A DNA stretch of 64,000 nt from Candidatus Kaiserbacteria bacterium (GCA_026396715.1 JAPLWH010000006.1:42850-106849); one strand, 5' to 3'; numbered from the stretch's first letter, positions 36,454 to 43,665 are shown. A program made the numbers and translations. The notes: a model not told the origin generated them from the sequence alone.

Positions 36454-36987
36454 TTATCCTATGCGGCCAGCGAGCACTTCGAGAGCCTTCGTGAGCAGCA
36501 CCTTCGTCGAGTCGTCAGTGATGTTCCCTTCTGCGTCGAACAGTTCGTGCGCCGGGCCGAGATACAGTTCCGGCTGGCCGATGACGTCCGCATCGAGATA
36601 GAGCATGATCTGTCGCAAGTGACTCTGCGCGACCGCGGTGCCGATCTTCCCTCCCGAGACGCCGGCGACGAGGACCGGCTTCCTTGCGAAAGAATTCTGT
36701 CCGTACGGGCGGCTGGCCCAATCGATCGCGTTCTTCAGCACACCGGGGATGGAGCGATTATATTCCGGCGTCGCGATGATAATGCCATCAGCTGCCGCAA
36801 TAGCGTCCTTGAATGCTTGCGCTACCGGGGGAAATGCACTTTCGTCGTCCTGATTAAAGAGCGGCAGCGTGCCGATATCCGCGAGCGCAATTTCCATGCC
36901 CGCTGGTGCGAGCGACTGAAAGGCGCGCACCAGCGCCGTGTTCGACGAACCCTTCCTCAGACTGCCCGAAATCGCGACTATGTTCAT
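36454..36987 (-). CDS. NADPH-dependent FMN reductase family protein
   Basis: Start MNIVAISGSLRKGSSNT; flavodoxin-like fold motifs; ORF-track N-terminal extension rejected. Confidence 0.8.
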   Translation of the reverse strand: MNIVAISGSLRKGSSNTALVRAFQSLAPAGMEIALADIGTLPLFNQDDESAFPPVAQAFKDAIAAADGIIIATPEYNRSIPGVLKNAIDWASRPYGQNSFARKPVLVAGVSGGKIGTAVAQSHLRQIMLYLDADVIGQPELYLGPAHELFDAEGNITDDSTKVLLTKALEVLAGRIG

Positions 36988-37072: not shown

Positions 37073-37774
37073 CTATCGAAGTGTCTCCTTCCAGCGTTTG
37101 TAGAGGGCGGCGGTGGCGCGGAGGTCGCCGGCATTGTAGCGGGCGATGTCGAAGTACTTCCCTTCTTTGTAGAGCGTCGCGACGTCGTCGCCGGTCGTGC
37201 CGCCCGCTTTGGGACTCTCTATACCGAGCGCGCGACAGAAGAGGTGCAGACTCTTGCGGAAGCGCGCGGCGCCGTAGAACGTGAGCTGGTCCATCAGGTC
37301 GATATGCGCGGCGCCACGCTGCATCGAGAGGTAGCGGTTGCTGAGCAGGTCTTTCGTCGGCACGACGCGGTGCACCATCGAGCGGATGGCGAGGAACGGC
37401 GCATCGAAGCCGCGACCATTGAAGGAAACGAACTCCGTGCATACATTCGCGACTTTCCAGAATTGCTCGAGCATCGCTTTTTCATCCATCGCTTCGTATT
37501 TGATGCCGTCTATTTCACTGTTTGCAAGCTCGGTGCCAGGAGCGGAAAAATAGACCGCGCCTTTTTCTTTCTCGGTATCGTACACGCCGATCGCGACGAT
37601 AAAACCAGTAAGCGGCGAGAGCCCCATCCCCTCTTTCAATTCTTTCATCTCATATTCGTATTCTTCTTCGCTCTTCGACGATTCACGCAAATACCACGAC
37701 AGATTGTGCTGCGTCGTCTCATCAAGCGCGTCCCACGCTTCGCCGACTGTCTCGATATCGAATACGAGTGCCAT
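37073..37774 (-). CDS. Predicted 3'-5' exonuclease related to PolB exonuclease domain (RNase H-like)
   Basis: Start MALVFDIETVGE (Exo I DxE), later FNGRGFDAPFL and YNAGD (Exo III-like). Confidence 0.6.
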   Translation of the reverse strand: MALVFDIETVGEAWDALDETTQHNLSWYLRESSKSEEEYEYEMKELKEGMGLSPLTGFIVAIGVYDTEKEKGAVYFSAPGTELANSEIDGIKYEAMDEKAMLEQFWKVANVCTEFVSFNGRGFDAPFLAIRSMVHRVVPTKDLLSNRYLSMQRGAAHIDLMDQLTFYGAARFRKSLHLFCRALGIESPKAGGTTGDDVATLYKEGKYFDIARYNAGDLRATAALYKRWKETLR

Positions 37775-37814
37775 GGGCACAGTATAGCCATTTCCCATAG
37801 CAAAGCGAAGGTAC

Positions 37815-37826
37815 TATAGTTCCCCC
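37815..37826 (+). promoter_or_regulatory. -10 box TATAGT 6 nt upstream of MmeI-like ATG (probable leaderless transcript)
   Basis: gtacTATAGTtcccccATG; no SD sequence. Confidence 0.4.
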
Positions 37827-40604
37827 ATGCTCACTTGGAATGAGATGCGTGATAGGGCGACCAAATTCGCCCGCGCATGGAGAGACGAGACGCGCGAGAT
37901 GGGAGAATACCAGACCTTTTGGAACGAATTCTTCGACATATTCGGCATAAAGCGCCGTTCTGTCGCTATTTATCAACAACAGGTGGAAAAGCTCGGTGGA
38001 GGACGCGGATTCATCGATCTCTTCCAGCCAGGGAAACTTATCGCCGAACATAAGTCCGCTGGGAAAGATCTCGATGAAGCATTCATGCAGGCGATCGAAT
38101 ACTCTGCAGCTCTTCCCGAAGACATACGCCCCCGCTATATCATCATCACTGATTACGCGCACATGCGCCTCTGTGACCTCGAAGGCGAAAACGGAGAGAC
38201 GGAAAAATATGAGTTTCCCCTCTCGGACCTTCCGAAGCATATTCGGCACTTCGCATTCATTCCCGGCTATGAGGTGCGCAAATACCGTGAGCAGGATCCA
38301 GTGAACCGCAAGGCGGTGCGCGTCGTGGTCAATCTGTATCAGACGCTCGCAAAAAGTAATTACCCGCGGGAACATCTTGGGCACTTGCTCGTACGGCTCG
38401 TCTTCTGTTATTTCGCAGACGACGCCGGCATCTTCCCGCCCGGCGAGCCATTCCGCTATTACCTGGCACTCGGGAGCAGTGAAGACGGCAACGATTTCGG
38501 CAGCCGTCTCGATGCCGTCTTTTCAACATTGAACACACCCGAAGAAAGGCGGCAAACAACGCTCGATGAGCGGCTCGCTGAATTACCCTATGTAAATGGC
38601 GGACTCTTCGCCGATTACCTCCCTGTCGTCTTCTTCAACCGCGAGATGCGCCGTGCGGTGCTTGATGCTTGCGAGTTCAATTGGAGCGCAGTTTCCCCGG
38701 AGATTTTCGGCTCAATGTTCCAGTTCGTACTCGAAACCGACTCGGGCGACACTCGCCATGACTTCGGCGCCCACTACACTTCAGAGAAGAACATCCTGAA
38801 AGTCATCGACGGTCTCTTTATGGATGAGCTGCGTACCGAACTCTCCACAGCTGGCAAAAACACGGCAAAGCTGAATGCGCTCTGGGAGAAAATCGCTCGC
38901 ATTACCCTCCTCGACCCAGCCTGCGGTTGTGGCAACTTCCTTGTCGTCGCCTATAGAGAGCTGCGCCGTCTTGAGCTCGAAATATTGAAGCGTCTCCATC
39001 CGCAACACGCTGAGCAAGTAGAAGGAGCGGGTCAAACGGCGCTTCCAATAGACATCCGCCATCTTTCAAAACTTTCTGTCGAGCGGATGTACGGCATCGA
39101 GCTTCTCCACTTCCCCGCAGAAATAGCGAAGCTCTCGCTCTGGCTTACCGACCATCTTGCAAACATAGAGCTGGGCGATTATTTCGGTGTACCATTTGTG
39201 AAGCTTCCCTTGACCGAATCCCCGCACATCAAAGAAGGCAATGCGCTCACGCTCGACTGGGAATCTATAGTCCCGAAAGAAAATCTCTCCTATATCCTCG
39301 GCAATCCGCCCTTTATAGGATCGCGCGTCATGGACGCGAACCAAAAAGCGGACATGCTTGCCGTCTTCGGAAAAATCAGAGAACTCGGCTTTCTTGATTA
39401 TGTAACTGCTTGGTATAAGAAAGCCGCCACGTATATCCAAAATACGCCGATTAAAGTCGGCTTCGTATCAACAAACTCCATCACGCAAGGCGAACAGGTC
39501 GGCATCTTGTGGGAGCAATTGCATGCGCTCAATATTCACATCCATTTCGCGCATCGTACCTTCAAGTGGAGTAACGAGGCACCGGGGAAGGCCGCCGTGT
39601 ATTGCGTCATCATCGGTTTCGCGGCGTTCCCTTCAGAGCGACCTCGACTTTTTGATTACGAAGATGTTCGCGGCGAAGCTCACGAAGTAAGTGTAAAAGA
39701 AATAAATCCCTATCTAGTCGCGGCACCAGAAAATGTCATTGTACGCAACCGCCACAAACCAATTTCAGAGGTACCCGAGATGTCATTCGGCAATATGCCG
39801 CGGGATGCCGGCGCATTTATTTTGAGCGAAGAGGAACGTGCAAATCTTCTTGCGCAGGAACCAGCAGCAGAAAAGTTTGTTCGCGATTATATGGGCGCGC
39901 AAGAATTTTTGCATAGTGAGAAACGCTACTGTCTCTGGCTTGTGGACGCAAAACCCGAAGAGCTTCGCGCACTCCCACTAGTCATGCGCCGTATTGAAAA
40001 CGTTCGCGCATTTCGCGAGTTAAGTGCCGCGGCTTCAACACGCAAAATGGCAGAAACGCCATCTCTCTTCGCGCAACGCACACAACCAAAAAGTGATTAC
40101 GTACTTATTCCGAGTACCTCGTCTGAAAATCGTCGATATGTTCCGATGGGCTTTATGCCCAAGGAAGTAATAGCCAGTAATAGTTGTCACACTATACCAA
40201 GTGCAACTCTCTATCACTTCGGCGTTCTTGAAAGCGAGCTCCATATGACCTGGATGCGTGCTATCTGCGGACGACTTGAAAGTCGCTATCGTTATTCTAA
40301 AGACATTGTCTACAACAATTTCCCGTGGCTGGAAAATCCTTCAACGGAAGTGAAGAAGGCGGTCGAAGATGCGGCACAGGCAATCCTCAATGTGCGTGCT
40401 GCGCACCCCGGCGCAACGCTTGCCGACCTCTACGACCCGCTCACGATGCCCACCGATCTCCTCGCGGCGCACCACGCGCTCGACCGCGCCGTCGACCGCG
40501 CCTACGACATTACCAAGCCCTTCCCATCCGAATCCGCCCGTCTCGAATTTCTATTTGAGAAATACCAAAAACTTCTGCAACGAACGCCTACAAAGAAAAT
40601 CTGA
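37827..40604 (+). CDS. MmeI-family Type IIL/IIG restriction-modification enzyme (endonuclease + N6-adenine methyltransferase + TRD in one polypeptide)
   Basis: 925 aa; N-terminus MLTWNEMRDRATKFARAWRDE...FWNEFFDIFGI matches MmeI nuclease domain; MTase motif I LDPACGCGNFLV, motif IV GNPPFIG; FVSTNSITQGEQV; C-terminal SRYRYS...FPW and LADLYDP motifs. Confidence 0.88.
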   Translation: MLTWNEMRDRATKFARAWRDETREMGEYQTFWNEFFDIFGIKRRSVAIYQQQVEKLGGGRGFIDLFQPGKLIAEHKSAGKDLDEAFMQAIEYSAALPEDIRPRYIIITDYAHMRLCDLEGENGETEKYEFPLSDLPKHIRHFAFIPGYEVRKYREQDPVNRKAVRVVVNLYQTLAKSNYPREHLGHLLVRLVFCYFADDAGIFPPGEPFRYYLALGSSEDGNDFGSRLDAVFSTLNTPEERRQTTLDERLAELPYVNGGLFADYLPVVFFNREMRRAVLDACEFNWSAVSPEIFGSMFQFVLETDSGDTRHDFGAHYTSEKNILKVIDGLFMDELRTELSTAGKNTAKLNALWEKIARITLLDPACGCGNFLVVAYRELRRLELEILKRLHPQHAEQVEGAGQTALPIDIRHLSKLSVERMYGIELLHFPAEIAKLSLWLTDHLANIELGDYFGVPFVKLPLTESPHIKEGNALTLDWESIVPKENLSYILGNPPFIGSRVMDANQKADMLAVFGKIRELGFLDYVTAWYKKAATYIQNTPIKVGFVSTNSITQGEQVGILWEQLHALNIHIHFAHRTFKWSNEAPGKAAVYCVIIGFAAFPSERPRLFDYEDVRGEAHEVSVKEINPYLVAAPENVIVRNRHKPISEVPEMSFGNMPRDAGAFILSEEERANLLAQEPAAEKFVRDYMGAQEFLHSEKRYCLWLVDAKPEELRALPLVMRRIENVRAFRELSAAASTRKMAETPSLFAQRTQPKSDYVLIPSTSSENRRYVPMGFMPKEVIASNSCHTIPSATLYHFGVLESELHMTWMRAICGRLESRYRYSKDIVYNNFPWLENPSTEVKKAVEDAAQAILNVRAAHPGATLADLYDPLTMPTDLLAAHHALDRAVDRAYDITKPFPSESARLEFLFEKYQKLLQRTPTKKI

Positions 40605-40606
40605 TT

Positions 40607-40834
40607 TCAACCGCGAGGCGGAAAATCATCGTTTCCATACGAGTTTCGCCATCCGATTCTGCCATTCTCATTCTGCACGAATAGTTCGGCCTCTTTATTG
40701 ATAGCGACTTCGCGTGCTCGTACAACCGCTTCCGCTTTCGTGTCATATATACCTGCAGCCCGTTCTGCTCCCGCGGAATGTACCTTCCAATCCTCGCCTG
40801 ATGGACTAACCCATACTTGCTTTTGCTTGCTCAT
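40607..40834 (-). CDS. DUF2188-family protein
   Basis: 75 aa; WKV...TKAEA...A..A....EL.V...G.I....SYGNDDFPPRG pattern. Confidence 0.6.
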   Translation of the reverse strand: MSKQKQVWVSPSGEDWKVHSAGAERAAGIYDTKAEAVVRAREVAINKEAELFVQNENGRIGWRNSYGNDDFPPRG

Positions 40835-40920
40835 GTTAATTCTGCATTACTTGATAATAAAACTCTTGTCTCTTCCTTCTTCGGTAACCGAATTGAGTCC
40901 ATTTTATTCCTCAAATATCC

Positions 40921-40973
40921 ACTGTCAATATCCCCGACATATATTTGACAGTAATTCTGACACTGCTACCATA
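40921..40973 (+). promoter_or_regulatory. 8-bp inverted repeat (actgtcaa-N16-ttgacagt) overlapping -35 TTGACA of putative promoter for HTH-Panacea gene
   Basis: IR 40921-40928 / 40945-40952; TTGACA 40945-40950, 16-nt spacer, TACCAT 40967-40972, ATG at 40979. Confidence 0.45.
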
Positions 40974-40978
40974 GACCT

Positions 40979-41761
40979 ATGACCACCGCACTTCTAAAAA
41001 AACTTCGGGAGGAACAAGCATTGTCACAAGATTCAATAGCGAGAGAGCTTGGTATTTCGCGCCCGACATATATCGCGATTGAACAAGGGAAACGCAAGCT
41101 TACCCTCTCTGAAGCGGAGTGTTTGGCACAGATGTTTAGTATCTCACTCGACGAACTTGTCTACGGGAAACGTCGCAAGGTGGATGTCGTCTTATCGAAA
41201 ACACCGGTACCAAAGAAGGTAGCTGCGGAAAATGGTATACGCATCAGCGTCCCAGCCGAGAATAAAGAGAAGTTCAAACAGGTACTGCTCTATATTCTTG
41301 AAAAAATCGGTAGCAAGCCGAATATCGGCATGACCGCCCTCTATAAAATCCTCTATTTCATCGACTTCGACTACTACGAGAAATTCGAAGAACAACTCAT
41401 GGGTGCTGTGTACATCCGCAATCATTATGGTCCGACTCCTGTTGCCTTCACAAAAATCGTGAAAGAAATGGAACGCGAGGGTACTCTTGCAGCAATCGAA
41501 ACAAAGTATTTTCAACATGAACAGAAGAAATTCCTTCCTCGCACGAAGCCAGAATTAAAACAACTTTCTGGTCAAGAAATTGCACATATCGATGAAACGC
41601 TAGCGCGGCTTGGCGACAAGAACGCTCGTGAACTTACCGAGCTGTCTCATCGCGATATCCCATGGATGTGCGTCAAAGATGGCGAGCCGCTTGAATATGA
41701 GTCCGTCTTTTATCGTTCAGATGAGACTTCACAACGTGATTATGGACCGGATCCGTTATGA
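40979..41761 (+). CDS. XRE-family HTH + Panacea (DUF4065) domain protein, antitoxin-like (PanA/SocA-like)
   Basis: N-terminal HTH (LSQDSIARELGISRPTYIAIEQGKRKLTLSEAECLAQMF); central ALYKILYFIDFDYYEKFEEQLMGAVYIRNHYGPTP matches DUF4065. Confidence 0.7.
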   Translation: MTTALLKKLREEQALSQDSIARELGISRPTYIAIEQGKRKLTLSEAECLAQMFSISLDELVYGKRRKVDVVLSKTPVPKKVAAENGIRISVPAENKEKFKQVLLYILEKIGSKPNIGMTALYKILYFIDFDYYEKFEEQLMGAVYIRNHYGPTPVAFTKIVKEMEREGTLAAIETKYFQHEQKKFLPRTKPELKQLSGQEIAHIDETLARLGDKNARELTELSHRDIPWMCVKDGEPLEYESVFYRSDETSQRDYGPDPL

Positions 41762-42125
41762 GGAAACGCTAGGGTTCGCTCATGACATCAAGAAGCTCCT
41801 TAAACGCTTCCGCTCACTCCGAGCAGATATAGAAGTAGCAAAACGCTACGCGTTAGAACCTTTCCATGCCGAGCCGCGCATAGACACGAATGCTATCGAA
41901 GAAATTTCGGGGTCATGTACGGAAGAAGTGCGGGCATGCAAAATAAAAAAATTCACATGCCGGGCAATCAAGGGGCGAGGTGTTATGAGCGGAATCCGCA
42001 TTACCTATGCGTATCACATCCGACAGAAGCGTGTGGTGTTCATCGAGATTTATTTCAAGGGCGACAAAGAGAATGAGGATCGCGCGCGGATTAAAGAATA
42101 TCTCGAGAGTATACTAGACGCATGA
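41742..42125 (+). CDS. RelE/ParE-superfamily (HigB/Gp49-like) toxin candidate
   Basis: 127 aa from MDRIRYEETLGF...; C-terminal GIRITYAYHIRQKRVVFIEIYFKGDKENEDRARIKEY resembles RelE/HigB core; 20-nt overlap with upstream gene, ATGA overlap with downstream. Confidence 0.45.
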   Translation: MDRIRYEETLGFAHDIKKLLKRFRSLRADIEVAKRYALEPFHAEPRIDTNAIEEISGSCTEEVRACKIKKFTCRAIKGRGVMSGIRITYAYHIRQKRVVFIEIYFKGDKENEDRARIKEYLESILDA

Positions 42126-43033
42126 ATGCAAAAGTGATTCGTGCGGCTACAGCACTAATTCTCGCGCTCGCGGCGGGCGCGATGGGATACACGGCGGGCG
42201 GGAGCGGAACGGAAAGTCCGAACATAAGCATCCCCGCTCAAACTATTGCCGCACCAACAGCAGGCACGACACGCGTGATTTACAGCCTCGATCAGAAACA
42301 GAATGATAAAGAACTCATCGCACTCATCAATGCCGCAGAGGACCACATCTACTTCGCGATCTACACCTTTACCCTTCCGACTATCGCCGACGCTCTCGTC
42401 AAAGCAAAAAAGCGCGGCGTCGATGTGAAAGGACTCATGGACTCCGAGCAAAGCGGCAACAGTTACGGCACTCCTATTACTGCAAAACTGCGTGACGCCG
42501 GTATTCCTCTCCTTGTAGAGCGACACGCAAGTGGCAACGGCATCATGCACATAAAACTCCTTGTGACGGAACAGGCGTACGCCTTTGGCAGCTATAACTG
42601 GACCAATTCCGCGACAACTCTCAACGATGAAATCCTCGAAATCGGTACCGACCCGGCACTGCGGCAGACGTACGAAAATATTTTGAAACGACTGTTTGAT
42701 GCCTATAAAGGCAACGCGGCCGCGGGAGCGGCCGCGAGTGTTTCTATCGGGACCATCGACTACACGCAAGCACCCGCGCACGTCGGCCAAAGAGCCTCCG
42801 TGCGCGGCACCCTCGTCAAAGCCTATACCTCCGCAAGTGGTACCGTCTTCCTCGATTTCTGCGAGAATTACAAAAACTGCCCCTTTTCAGGCGTCATCTT
42901 CGCCGACGATGTAAAAAAATTCGGCACCCTTTCTCGCTACAATGGGACCGCCATCACCCTTACCGGCAAAATCTCCTCCTACCAGGGAAAAGCCGAAATC
43001 GTCCTTTCTAATCCGAATCAAATCTCTCTGTGA
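42122..43033 (+). CDS. Secreted phospholipase D (HKD)-family nuclease (Nuc-like) fused to C-terminal OB-fold domain
   Basis: Signal peptide MNAKVIRAATALILALAAGAMG; single HKD-like motif HIKLLVTE...GSYNWT; C-terminal ~100 aa with OB-fold-like pattern (VRGTLVKAY..SGTVFLDF...ITLTGKISSYQGKAEIVL). Confidence 0.65.
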   Translation: MNAKVIRAATALILALAAGAMGYTAGGSGTESPNISIPAQTIAAPTAGTTRVIYSLDQKQNDKELIALINAAEDHIYFAIYTFTLPTIADALVKAKKRGVDVKGLMDSEQSGNSYGTPITAKLRDAGIPLLVERHASGNGIMHIKLLVTEQAYAFGSYNWTNSATTLNDEILEIGTDPALRQTYENILKRLFDAYKGNAAAGAAASVSIGTIDYTQAPAHVGQRASVRGTLVKAYTSASGTVFLDFCENYKNCPFSGVIFADDVKKFGTLSRYNGTAITLTGKISSYQGKAEIVLSNPNQISL

Positions 43034-43095: not shown

Positions 43096-43665
43096 GTGGC
43101 TACTGAACGACTTCGCATAAATAACGAGATCCGCGCGCAAGAATTGCGCGTTATTGGTGCCCAAGGGGAGAATTTGGGAGTTCTTTCGCTTGACGCGGCG
43201 CTCGCGGCCGCAAAAACCGCCGGACGCGACCTCATCGAAATCTCACCTTCGGCCCTGCCGCCCGTTGCGAAAATCATGGATTATGGTAAATTCGAATACG
43301 AGCGTAGCAAGAAGGAAAAGGTAGCAAAAGCCAAGGTCAAAGTGTCTGAGACCAAGGAGGTCCAGATCAAGGTGGGCACCGGCGACCACGATATGGGGCT
43401 CAAGGCGAGAAAGGCCGCTGAGTGGCTCGCCGAGGGTCACCGAGTACGTGCCGAGCTCTTCCTCAAAGGCCGCTACAAGGGCATGGGAGAGGAGTTCTTG
43501 AAGGAACGCCTCGTGCGGTTCCTCAAGCTCATCCCGTATGCCTACAAAGTCTCTGAGCCCGTCGCGCGGAGCCCCAAAGGCTTTGCTGGGGTCATCGAAC
43601 GAGACCTCATAGCCCAAGCGAAACGTGAGAAAGAACAGAAACCACAAAATGAAAAACCCAGTTAG
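43096..43665 (+). CDS. infC: Translation initiation factor IF-3
   Basis: INNEIRAQELRVIG...DLIEISPSALPPVAKIMDYGKFEYE. Confidence 0.9.
   Translation: MATERLRINNEIRAQELRVIGAQGENLGVLSLDAALAAAKTAGRDLIEISPSALPPVAKIMDYGKFEYERSKKEKVAKAKVKVSETKEVQIKVGTGDHDMGLKARKAAEWLAEGHRVRAELFLKGRYKGMGEEFLKERLVRFLKLIPYAYKVSEPVARSPKGFAGVIERDLIAQAKREKEQKPQNEKPS

Follow-up and report, generated by a model that had tools for sequence, protein, structure and literature searches.

Between a flavin reductase gene and the infC-rpmI-rplT operon, the genome of a Candidatus Kaiserbacteria bacterium carries six genes of defence-like character (37073-43033, the feature under study, in a stretch of 64,000 nt, GCA_026396715.1 JAPLWH010000006.1:42850-106849, termed the window below), and the locus raises the question of whether these genes belong together. 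The sequence-only reading, which had placed all six open reading frames (ORFs) where they were found, took them for a single defence island and saw in three of them, a Panacea antitoxin gene, a RelE-like toxin gene and the gene for a secreted phospholipase D (PLD) nuclease with an oligonucleotide/oligosaccharide-binding (OB) fold, a translationally coupled trio. Comparison with related genomes points to a different history. Very probably, a 4.3-kb horizontally acquired defence cassette has entered the ~20-bp spacer between the divergent native genes of a PolB-like exonuclease (PolB-exo) and the PLD nuclease (PLD-OB). The cassette is an ordinary one, composed of an MmeI-family restriction-modification (RM) enzyme, an optional DUF2188 protein and a PanAT toxin-antitoxin (TA) pair, all of kinds already known, and the apparent toxin-antitoxin-nuclease trio is an insertion artefact, a by-product of the landing site. 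What stands of the island is thus a horizontally acquired defence-type segment, of which synteny, junctions and composition leave only four genes as foreign. The features on which the argument turns are the following.

37073-37774, minus strand: PolB-like 3'-5' exonuclease, native (PF10108, E 8.5e-22; GC content at third codon positions, GC3, 0.72)
37781-37786: direct repeat AGTATA, left copy, single copy in relatives
37827-40604, plus strand: single-chain MmeI-family Type IIL/IIG RM enzyme, foreign (five MmeI Pfam domains above cut-offs; GC3 0.57)
40607-40834, minus strand: DUF2188 small protein, foreign (PF09954, 63.4 bits, E 2e-17; PADLOC PDC-S16, positions 1-75 of 75, E 9e-27)
40979-41761, plus strand: PanA, N-terminal XRE-type helix-turn-helix (HTH) plus Panacea, DUF4065 (HTH_3, E 2e-11; SocA_Panacea, 61.9 bits, E 1.3e-16)
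41742-42125, plus strand: toxin of predicted RelE/HigB fold, Pfam-less family, 127 aa (AlphaFold model, Foldseek, family profiles)
42108-42113: direct repeat AGTATA, right copy, aligned to the empty sites of L093, L094, L102, L110 and L159
42122-43033, plus strand: Nuc/NucT-type single-HKD PLD nuclease, native (PLDc_2, PF13091, 79.6 bits, E 2.5e-22; GC3 0.60)

Domains were assigned with Pfam, NCBIfam and PADLOC hidden Markov models (HMMs), which bear out five of the six domain calls of the sequence-only reading, its domain identities being essentially right: the PolB-like exonuclease (ORF 37073-37798, minus strand), the Type IIL enzyme (also REase_MTase_IIG in PADLOC, 1146 bits), the DUF2188 protein, the HTH-Panacea protein, whose score for SocA_Panacea (PF13274) lies above the Pfam cut-off of 25.7 bits, and the PLD nuclease; the toxin candidate, however, matches no model.

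Gene order around the PLD-OB gene was followed through 83 related loci (L086-L168), where it is kept as VKOR, p205, p181, FMN reductase, PolB-exo, PLD, infC, rpmI and rplT, with p181, FMN reductase and PolB-exo variably present. PLD-OB lies directly upstream of infC-rpmI-rplT in every one of them, always without a TA pair, and PolB-exo orthologs, 69-90% identical, lie divergently from it at a distance of ~20 bp in 12, whereas MmeI, DUF2188, PanA and toxin genes occur at the PLD-infC site in none of the 83. The FMN reductase, PolB-exo and PLD arrangement of the window recurs exactly, minus the four middle genes, in L159, and the cassette is also absent from the closest relative, L093, whose flanking proteins are 90-94% identical. 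The insert, which spans 37787-42107, has a GC content of 49.9% against 55.2% in the rest of the window, a value in the bottom 1% for stretches of 4.3 kb; it overlaps each of the ten strongest tetranucleotide outliers, and GC3 is 0.43-0.57 in its genes compared with 0.60-0.78 in the native neighbours. The window as a whole was measured at 55% GC, not at the ~60% assumed earlier as background, and of the 37-43 kb stretch suspected of deviant composition 37787-42107 does deviate, while PolB-exo and PLD-OB are native-like in GC3. That these two genes arrived together with the MmeI and TA genes as one accessory island is therefore very unlikely. The variable presence of PolB-exo, FMN reductase and p181 makes the region upstream of PLD plastic, and PolB-exo does match a Cas-associated DEDDh model weakly (E 9e-5), but its orthologs occupy the same position and orientation beside PLD in the 12 cassette-free relatives, and the junctions fall between PolB-exo and PLD rather than outside them.

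The empty sites locate these junctions to the base. In relatives the spacer consists of CAT (the PolB-exo start codon, in complement), nnCACAGTATACTGGACGC and ATG (the PLD start), with a single CACAGTATAC between the two start codons. In the window, native sequence ends with ...CACAGTATA at 37786 and foreign sequence runs from 37787, and on the right the native spacer resumes at 42108 as AGTATACTAGACGC, followed by the PLD ATG; the empty site reconstructed in silico reads PolB-exo, CACAGTATACTAGACGC, PLD. The extension of the PolB-exo ORF from 37774 to 37798, where its start had been placed before, is inserted DNA, the real start at 37774 (MALVFDIE) being aligned with that of relatives. On the other side, the repeat copy together with native spacer supplies toxin codons 123-127 (SILDA) and the TGA stop, and the ATGA overlap with the PLD gene (42122-42125) results from the toxin ORF running past the insertion junction into this spacer. 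Integration would have fused the toxin ORF to five native codons, with the toxin stop landing on the PLD start codon; what appeared to be a new tripartite system is an insertion scar, shown as such by the empty sites at single-base resolution. The opposite course, an ancestral presence of the cassette here followed by its loss from every relative sampled, would draw on the proneness of the region to gene gain and loss, but it is highly improbable given the 83 relatives without the cassette, the closest among them, the deviant composition of the insert, the single copy of AGTATA in all empty sites, the replacement of the toxin 3' end by spacer sequence, and the presence of a homologous cassette at a different locus in other genomes.

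The same comparison bears on the trio itself. Toxin relatives were sought in one genome per GTDB species and found in 496 stretches; the counts given here rest on the best 80 loci, drawn from up to 80 species genomes, mostly Patescibacteria metagenome-assembled genomes (MAGs) with a few from Proteobacteria, Nitrospinota and Spirochaetota, and 79 of them have upstream DNA. A PLD-OB homolog stands at none of these 80 other toxin loci. It is thus hardly credible that PanA, the RelE-like toxin and the secreted PLD-OB evolved as a translationally coupled tripartite TA system with a nuclease effector or accessory, the arrangement that the sequence-only reading had singled out. The ATGA overlap does exist, Kurata et al. 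(PMC8832971) allow for PanAT architectures of three genes that include accessory nucleases, and the PLD protein shows a weak resemblance to the defence PLDs DrmC and DpdK (E 4e-11 to 1e-5); against this, the gene precedes infC in 83 of 83 relatives, with no TA pair, the overlap is made by native spacer into which the toxin ORF continues, and the best relatives of the protein in structure and sequence are Nuc and NucT, not defence PLDs. Its homologs number at least 757, of which the best 120 are 72-86% identical and the named ones come from Kaiserbacteria/Paceibacterota-type genomes. DISARM, of which DrmA and DrmB are core genes, was also considered for the PLD and MmeI genes and set aside: they give only secondary DrmC and DrmMI matches, the 34-46 kb region contains no helicase or DUF1998 genes, and PLD is core-syntenic.

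As for the PLD-OB protein, profile searches match it to Nuc (1BYR, E 2.7e-15) and NucT, and its Foldseek match to Nuc has a TM-score of 0.77 on the target (E 6.5e-10). The catalytic motif, read directly, is H143-I-K145-LLVTE...GSYN, in which E replaces the D of HxK(x)4D(x)6GSxN, and the N-terminus, MNAKVIRAATALILALAAGAMGY, is a basic stretch followed by a hydrophobic one. The PLD part of the earlier PLD-plus-OB assignment is firm, and the OB part weakly supported: tRNA_anti_2 matches the C-terminus with E 0.0019, below the Pfam cut-off, and the AlphaFold model shows a beta1-3/helix/beta4-5 barrel topology there at pLDDT 70-84, with a whole-model mean of only 65.7, so that a C-terminal OB fold is probable on this model. 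A perfect 9-bp GC-only hairpin (CGCGGCCGCGGGAGCGGCCGCG) lies inside the gene at 42715-42736 of the window and encodes an Ala/Gly linker, AAAGAAA, which joins the PLD domain to the OB-like one and whose residues are invariant in homologs. The most plausible role of the protein would be in housekeeping, as a nuclease that is secreted or anchored in the membrane, which would fit the scavenging of nucleotides in the candidate phyla radiation (CPR). The insertion removed the native upstream DNA beyond ~14 bp from its start codon, and, judged from the gene arrangement, expression of PLD, and perhaps of infC, may now rely on transcription that continues from the TA operon. The genes for a conserved, putatively secreted nuclease and the infC operon have come to lie directly downstream of a TA operon predicted to be autoregulated, and the locus would thereby show, as a natural example, how a mobile cassette can rewire the expression of core genes in a streamlined genome.

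How the cassette entered is suggested by its ends. The 47 bp in front of the MmeI gene form a leader with a promoter-like sequence of its own:

37780-37826, plus strand: leader at the cassette left end (CAGTATAGCC...GCGAAGGTACTATAGTTCCCC), promoter-like TTCCCA-17-TATAGT

In L169, L177 and L179 this leader recurs almost unchanged next to ArgRS, and its conservation there implies that CAGTATA belongs to the cassette end as well as to the target: the cassette reads CAGTATA-GCC at its left end and the target CAGTATA-CTGG, and the window junctions are attL/attR-like, CAC-AGTATA-GCC and GAG-AGTATA-CTAG. A circular form recombining at a 6-7-bp core would leave AGTATA on both sides, and its expected junction would read ...CTCGAGAGTATAGCCATTTCC...; microhomology-mediated illegitimate recombination is an equally possible route. 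A search of the surroundings of the insert for terminal inverted repeats and for longer direct repeats gave, beyond the 6-bp AGTATA, chance-level matches only, and the lack of tRNA genes within 30-50 kb shows that this is not a tRNA-targeted island.

The two genes at the right end of the insert overlap by 20 nt (41742-41761), as had been read from the sequence. Across the sampled toxin loci, a full-length HTH-Panacea ortholog, 48-57% identical to PanA, lies directly upstream of the toxin, overlapping or abutting it, at 79 of the 79 loci with upstream DNA. In Kurata et al. 2022 (PNAS, PMC8832971), PanAT systems are delimited by a two-gene architecture that recurs in two or more species with an intergenic distance of <=100 nt, a pattern that these 79 loci follow, and HTH-PanA architectures and RelE/YoeB/ParE-like PanT clusters (e.g. 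T28) are catalogued there as untested predictions; names of CPR groups were not found in the portion of its supplementary data covered. All-vs-all clustering of flanking ORFs around the 80 toxin loci yielded no conserved third gene, the largest flanking clusters comprising 5 related loci (e.g. RecG). The sequence thus describes PanA and the toxin as a self-contained two-gene PanAT module. The idea that the neighbours of such modules are mainly defence genes was dropped, for the nearest large neighbours are mostly housekeeping genes (tRNA synthetases, UvrD/PDDEXK, DnaJ) and an RM or methylase gene adjoins ~5-7 of ~75 loci; some enrichment is plausible, yet there is no defence-island rule.

Upstream of PanA lies the spacer whose AT-richness the sequence-only reading had rightly remarked upon:

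40835-40978, no strand: AT-rich divergent promoter/operator region, 36% GC (promoter scan, inverted repeats)

The best two promoter-like sequences of this region fall within it, TTGACA-16-TAAAAT on the minus strand, facing DUF2188, and TTGACA-16-TG-TACCAT on the plus strand, ending 6 nt before the PanA ATG, and both -35 boxes (TTGACA) sit in an inverted repeat, ACTGTCAA/TTGACAGT. The block TGTCAATA...TTGACA...GACACTGCTA.CATAGA..TATG is conserved in L169, L170 and L179, and in these loci as in the window 6 nt separate the end of the PanA -10 box from the start codon, a spacing by which the PanA mRNA is probably leaderless or nearly so. The PanA HTH would probably repress this near-leaderless promoter, its own, through the TGTCAA/TTGACA inverted repeat as predicted operator, and PanA would probably neutralise the toxin by direct binding.

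The nature of the toxin is best read from its predicted structure. An AlphaFold (AF2) model built on 32 homologs (pLDDT 88, pTM 0.85) has a beta-alpha-alpha-beta4-alpha topology, in keeping with the RelE-type arrangement of N-terminal helices on a 4-5-stranded antiparallel sheet, and the top 25 Foldseek matches in the PDB are all RelE-superfamily toxins (probability 0.89-1.0, best E 5e-4), with HigB2, archaeal RelE, YoeB, YafQ, HP0892 and HP0894 at their head. Profiles of the family match only Vibrio cholerae HigB-2 in the PDB, with E 0.011 when built from 32 sequences and 2.6e-4 from 78 diverse members, over the C-terminal 45 residues only, in an alignment (GxGxxSGxRxIY...IYxK) that pairs R86, Y104 and K106 of the toxin with identical HigB-2 residues; apart from these three, no residue is near-invariant among the 78. 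Going by the model, the protein folds like a RelE/HigB toxin and lies outside any described sequence family, so that of the earlier RelE/HigB-like call the fold and the weak profile matches stand, without support from a domain model. Once freed, the toxin would most likely cleave ribosome-bound mRNA, as its fold neighbours and the conserved R86, Y104 and K106, the candidate catalytic residues, suggest. A ParE-like poison of DNA gyrase, or another non-RNase member of the fold, is unlikely by comparison with these data: the RelE/ParE fold is common to both activities (PMC10440598), one of the 78 members weakly matches PF05016 ParE_toxin (E 0.0025), and PfiT is among the fold matches at rank 20, but the top fold matches are without exception mRNases, the only PDB sequence matches are to HigB-2, and the three near-invariant residues are what a basic/aromatic active site would lead one to expect. 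An mRNase remains the preferred assignment.

The family to which this toxin belongs is large. Toxin homologs number 356 at 90% clustering, the named ones mostly from CPR/Patescibacteria, none with a Pfam domain and a few named "RelE" by JGI; an exhaustive profile search gives 738 clusters at 50% identity (E<=1e-3), and 32 close members searched against Pfam return noise only and no curated RelE/ParE match. For a RelE/HigB-fold family of this size (738 clusters), almost exclusively from CPR, a Pfam model would supply the annotation that hundreds of "hypothetical proteins" now lack. The homologs terminate 2-12 residues past a conserved YL with variable tails, by which the toxin with its SILDA tail is probably still functional, as far as sequence can tell. 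The domain also occurs at the C-terminus of a 3,334-aa protein, P0450 (residues 3216-3330, E 1e-22), which suggests a polymorphic-toxin-type C-terminal module, and in the 210-aa P0431 (residues 129-209); a second, partial toxin copy (L077:4666-4815, residues 72-121, 58% identical) lies 1.9 kb downstream of a complete PanAT pair. PLSDB contains no plasmid with the toxin, and viral carriage is near nil, with one IMG/VR contig and two phage records at 28% identity; on the former, the only viral-contig relative (L174:2771-3713), a Panacea-only PanA of 197 aa without an HTH is followed by a toxin 44% identical. Close relatives of MmeI or PanA were not found on viral contigs.

The RM enzyme at the left of the cassette is homologous to MmeI over its entire length, residues 2-924 aligning to residues 3-910 of MmeI (5HR4) with E 1e-274. 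Its single polypeptide comprises MmeI_N (a PD-ExK nuclease), a helical spacer, a gamma-class N6-adenine methyltransferase, a target recognition domain and a C-terminal domain, and its motifs are intact: D-x9-ExK (IDLFQPGKLIAEHKS), DPACGCGNFL (S-adenosylmethionine, SAM, motif I) and GNPPFIG (motif IV, NPPF). Enzymes of the MmeI family methylate one strand of an asymmetric site and cut unmodified DNA ~20 bp away (20/18 nt), and by analogy the cassette enzyme would be expected to do the same. DUF2188, described in the literature as a defence-associated protein of unassigned function, was tried as a regular PanAT partner and rejected, since an HMM search finds it beside PanA in only 3 of the 80 other toxin loci (L014, L018 and L078), and a 70-aa ORF at the same position in L012 is not DUF2188. 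It adjoins RM genes in L018 and L078, the L014 contig ends there, and it does not occur in the homologous cassettes of L169 and L179; DUF2188 is an optional, occasional passenger of the cassette.

Whether the MmeI gene and the TA pair travel together was judged from L169 and four close MmeI homologs that were looked up, selected solely on the length of their contigs (L175/L176, L177/L178, L179 and L180/L181). In L169 (1503-5482), MmeI (78% identical), PanA (69%) and toxin (65%) genes stand in the same order between the genes for arginyl-tRNA synthetase (ArgRS) and serine hydroxymethyltransferase (SHMT), without DUF2188, and the related L170 has PanA and the toxin at the same site without MmeI. 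Further cassette loci are as follows.

L175:5001-9186, with L176: MmeI 85% identical, then HTH-PanA and a 110-111-aa protein
L177:5001-9451, with L178: MmeI 82% identical, then HTH-PanA and a 110-111-aa protein
L179:5001-8941: MmeI 80% identical, then HTH-PanA and a 113-aa protein
L180:5001-9379, with L181: MmeI 74% identical, then Pfam HigB_toxin and an HTH/M78-peptidase protein
L012:2024-6372: distant MmeI, 48% identical, same arrangement

Across five independent genomic contexts, a RelE-superfamily TA pair thus comes directly after every close MmeI homolog looked up. The 110-113-aa proteins (L175:8854-9186, L177:9116-9451 and L179:8600-8941) are a sister subfamily of the toxin, 31-40% identical to it, with a common C-terminal motif, SLRVVYAY...FIEIYFKGDKENE, and no Pfam match. 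Identities of the MmeI and PanA proteins are incongruent between loci: L177 and L179 share 92% in MmeI but 61% in PanA, and L175 and L177 share 87% in PanA but 76% in MmeI, which implies that the modules are shuffled while their linkage persists. From the toxin side, a link to MmeI is rare (~2 of 80 loci), and the association is thus specific to this MmeI clade. The genomic settings of two of these cassettes are of interest. A large serine recombinase gene lies divergently beside the 74%-identical MmeI gene in L180 (3559-4887) and L181 and may represent the type of enzyme by which such cassettes are mobilised; no counterpart was found near the insert of the window. The 85%-identical MmeI and its PanAT pair adjoin type IV secretion system-like genes (PrgI, TraC-like and TraG P-loop proteins) in L175 (1774-4976) and L176, which hints at a conjugative or integrative and conjugative element-like context.

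Literature searches turned up nothing specific on a link of MmeI with TA pairs or with Panacea. PrrC, an anticodon nuclease embedded in the Type Ic hsd operon (EcoprrI), offers a precedent of a related kind. A functional coupling of this MmeI clade to a RelE-fold TA pair in Kaiserbacteria-type CPR is a tentative proposal and rather doubtful. In one version of it, the Panacea antitoxin could be a sensor that sets the toxin free upon inhibition or loss of the restriction enzyme, in the manner of a PrrC/EcoprrI-like guard or a second-line abortive defence; in another, the PanA HTH could be a controller of the RM gene. The recurrent linkage is a lead on TA modules that would stabilise or back up single-chain RM in bacteria largely without CRISPR.

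Several points weigh against a functional cassette that arrived by transfer. No recombinase or transposase was found in or beside the insert, and the 6-bp repeat could be microhomology, not a target-site duplication or att core. The window toxin, re-searched down to E<=10, matches no model of Pfam, NCBIfam or PADLOC (RelE, ParE, HigB, YoeB, YafQ and Gp49 models included), among the 78 diverse members only 2 reach ParE_toxin or RelE, with scores below cut-off (E 0.0025-0.0065), and the Foldseek TM-scores are moderate (0.5-0.7, with root-mean-square deviations of 4-6 A); the replaced C-terminal tail, in turn, could impair the toxin. Finally, the MmeI-side contexts sampled are few.

The native flanks of the locus are variable in their own right. 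Their outermost genes are these.

36454-36987, minus strand: NADPH-dependent FMN reductase, native left flank (PF03358, E 1.4e-44; GC3 0.71)
43096-43665, plus strand: infC, translation initiation factor 3 (IF3), GTG start (IF3_N and IF3_C; 82-92% identical in relatives)

FMN reductase orthologs, 70-78% identical, are found at the same position in many related loci, and infC is the first gene of the native infC-rpmI-rplT operon. Non-ATG starts are typical of IF3 autoregulation, which the GTG start of infC (43096) fits. Within Kaiserbacteria the PLD-infC neighbourhood varies, with p181, FMN reductase and PolB-exo coming and going, and the gap between PLD and infC holds 0.5-1.5 kb of additional DNA in at least ten relatives (e.g. 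L109:1695-2081, L149:9903-11375 and L127:9909-11122), mostly Pfam-less ORFs and one PemK/MazF toxin. Downstream, at ~46.4-47.8 kb of the window (L001:7598-8989), a beta-CASP/metallo-beta-lactamase (MBL) protein matches the Pfam model Anti-Pycsar_Apyc1, probably through the generic MBL-fold similarity of a conserved RNase J/CPSF-like enzyme.

Set beside known systems, each part of the locus has a described counterpart from which it differs in a definable way. The PLD nuclease resembles Nuc of Salmonella plasmid pKM101 and NucT of Helicobacter pylori in the sequence and fold of the PLD domain and in its N-terminal export-type hydrophobic segment; in contrast to these, it has a probable additional C-terminal OB-like domain and is chromosomal and core-syntenic beside infC in Kaiserbacteria. 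The cassette shares with PrrC-EcoprrI, and with the RM plus TA or abortive infection (Abi) linkages of defence islands, a toxin module genetically linked to an RM system, although here a PanAT pair lies downstream of a Type IIL gene and the link is known as gene adjacency. Its RM enzyme and MmeI of Methylophilus methylotrophus (5HR4) are homologous from end to end, with the same five domains, the PD-ExK, SAM and NPPF motifs and an identical GRLESRYRYS segment, but it is in the clade of the cassette enzyme that MmeI is consistently followed by a RelE-superfamily TA pair, which has not been described for MmeI. With V. cholerae HigB-2 and the RelE-superfamily mRNases (5JA8, 5JA9, 8A0X and 1WMI) the toxin shares the predicted beta-alpha-alpha-beta4-alpha fold and the C-terminal motif, whereas it is only 12-18% identical, has no Pfam RelE, ParE, Gp49 or HigB match, and is paired with an HTH-Panacea protein instead of HigA-2, the antitoxin gene coming first. 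Lastly, while its toxin family, which has no Pfam model and comes almost entirely from CPR/Patescibacteria MAGs, sets the pair apart from the catalogued PanAT systems (PMC8832971; Ernits et al. 2023, PMC10440598), it resembles them in having an HTH plus Panacea antitoxin gene just upstream of, and overlapping, a small toxin gene, and in a two-gene architecture kept across many species.

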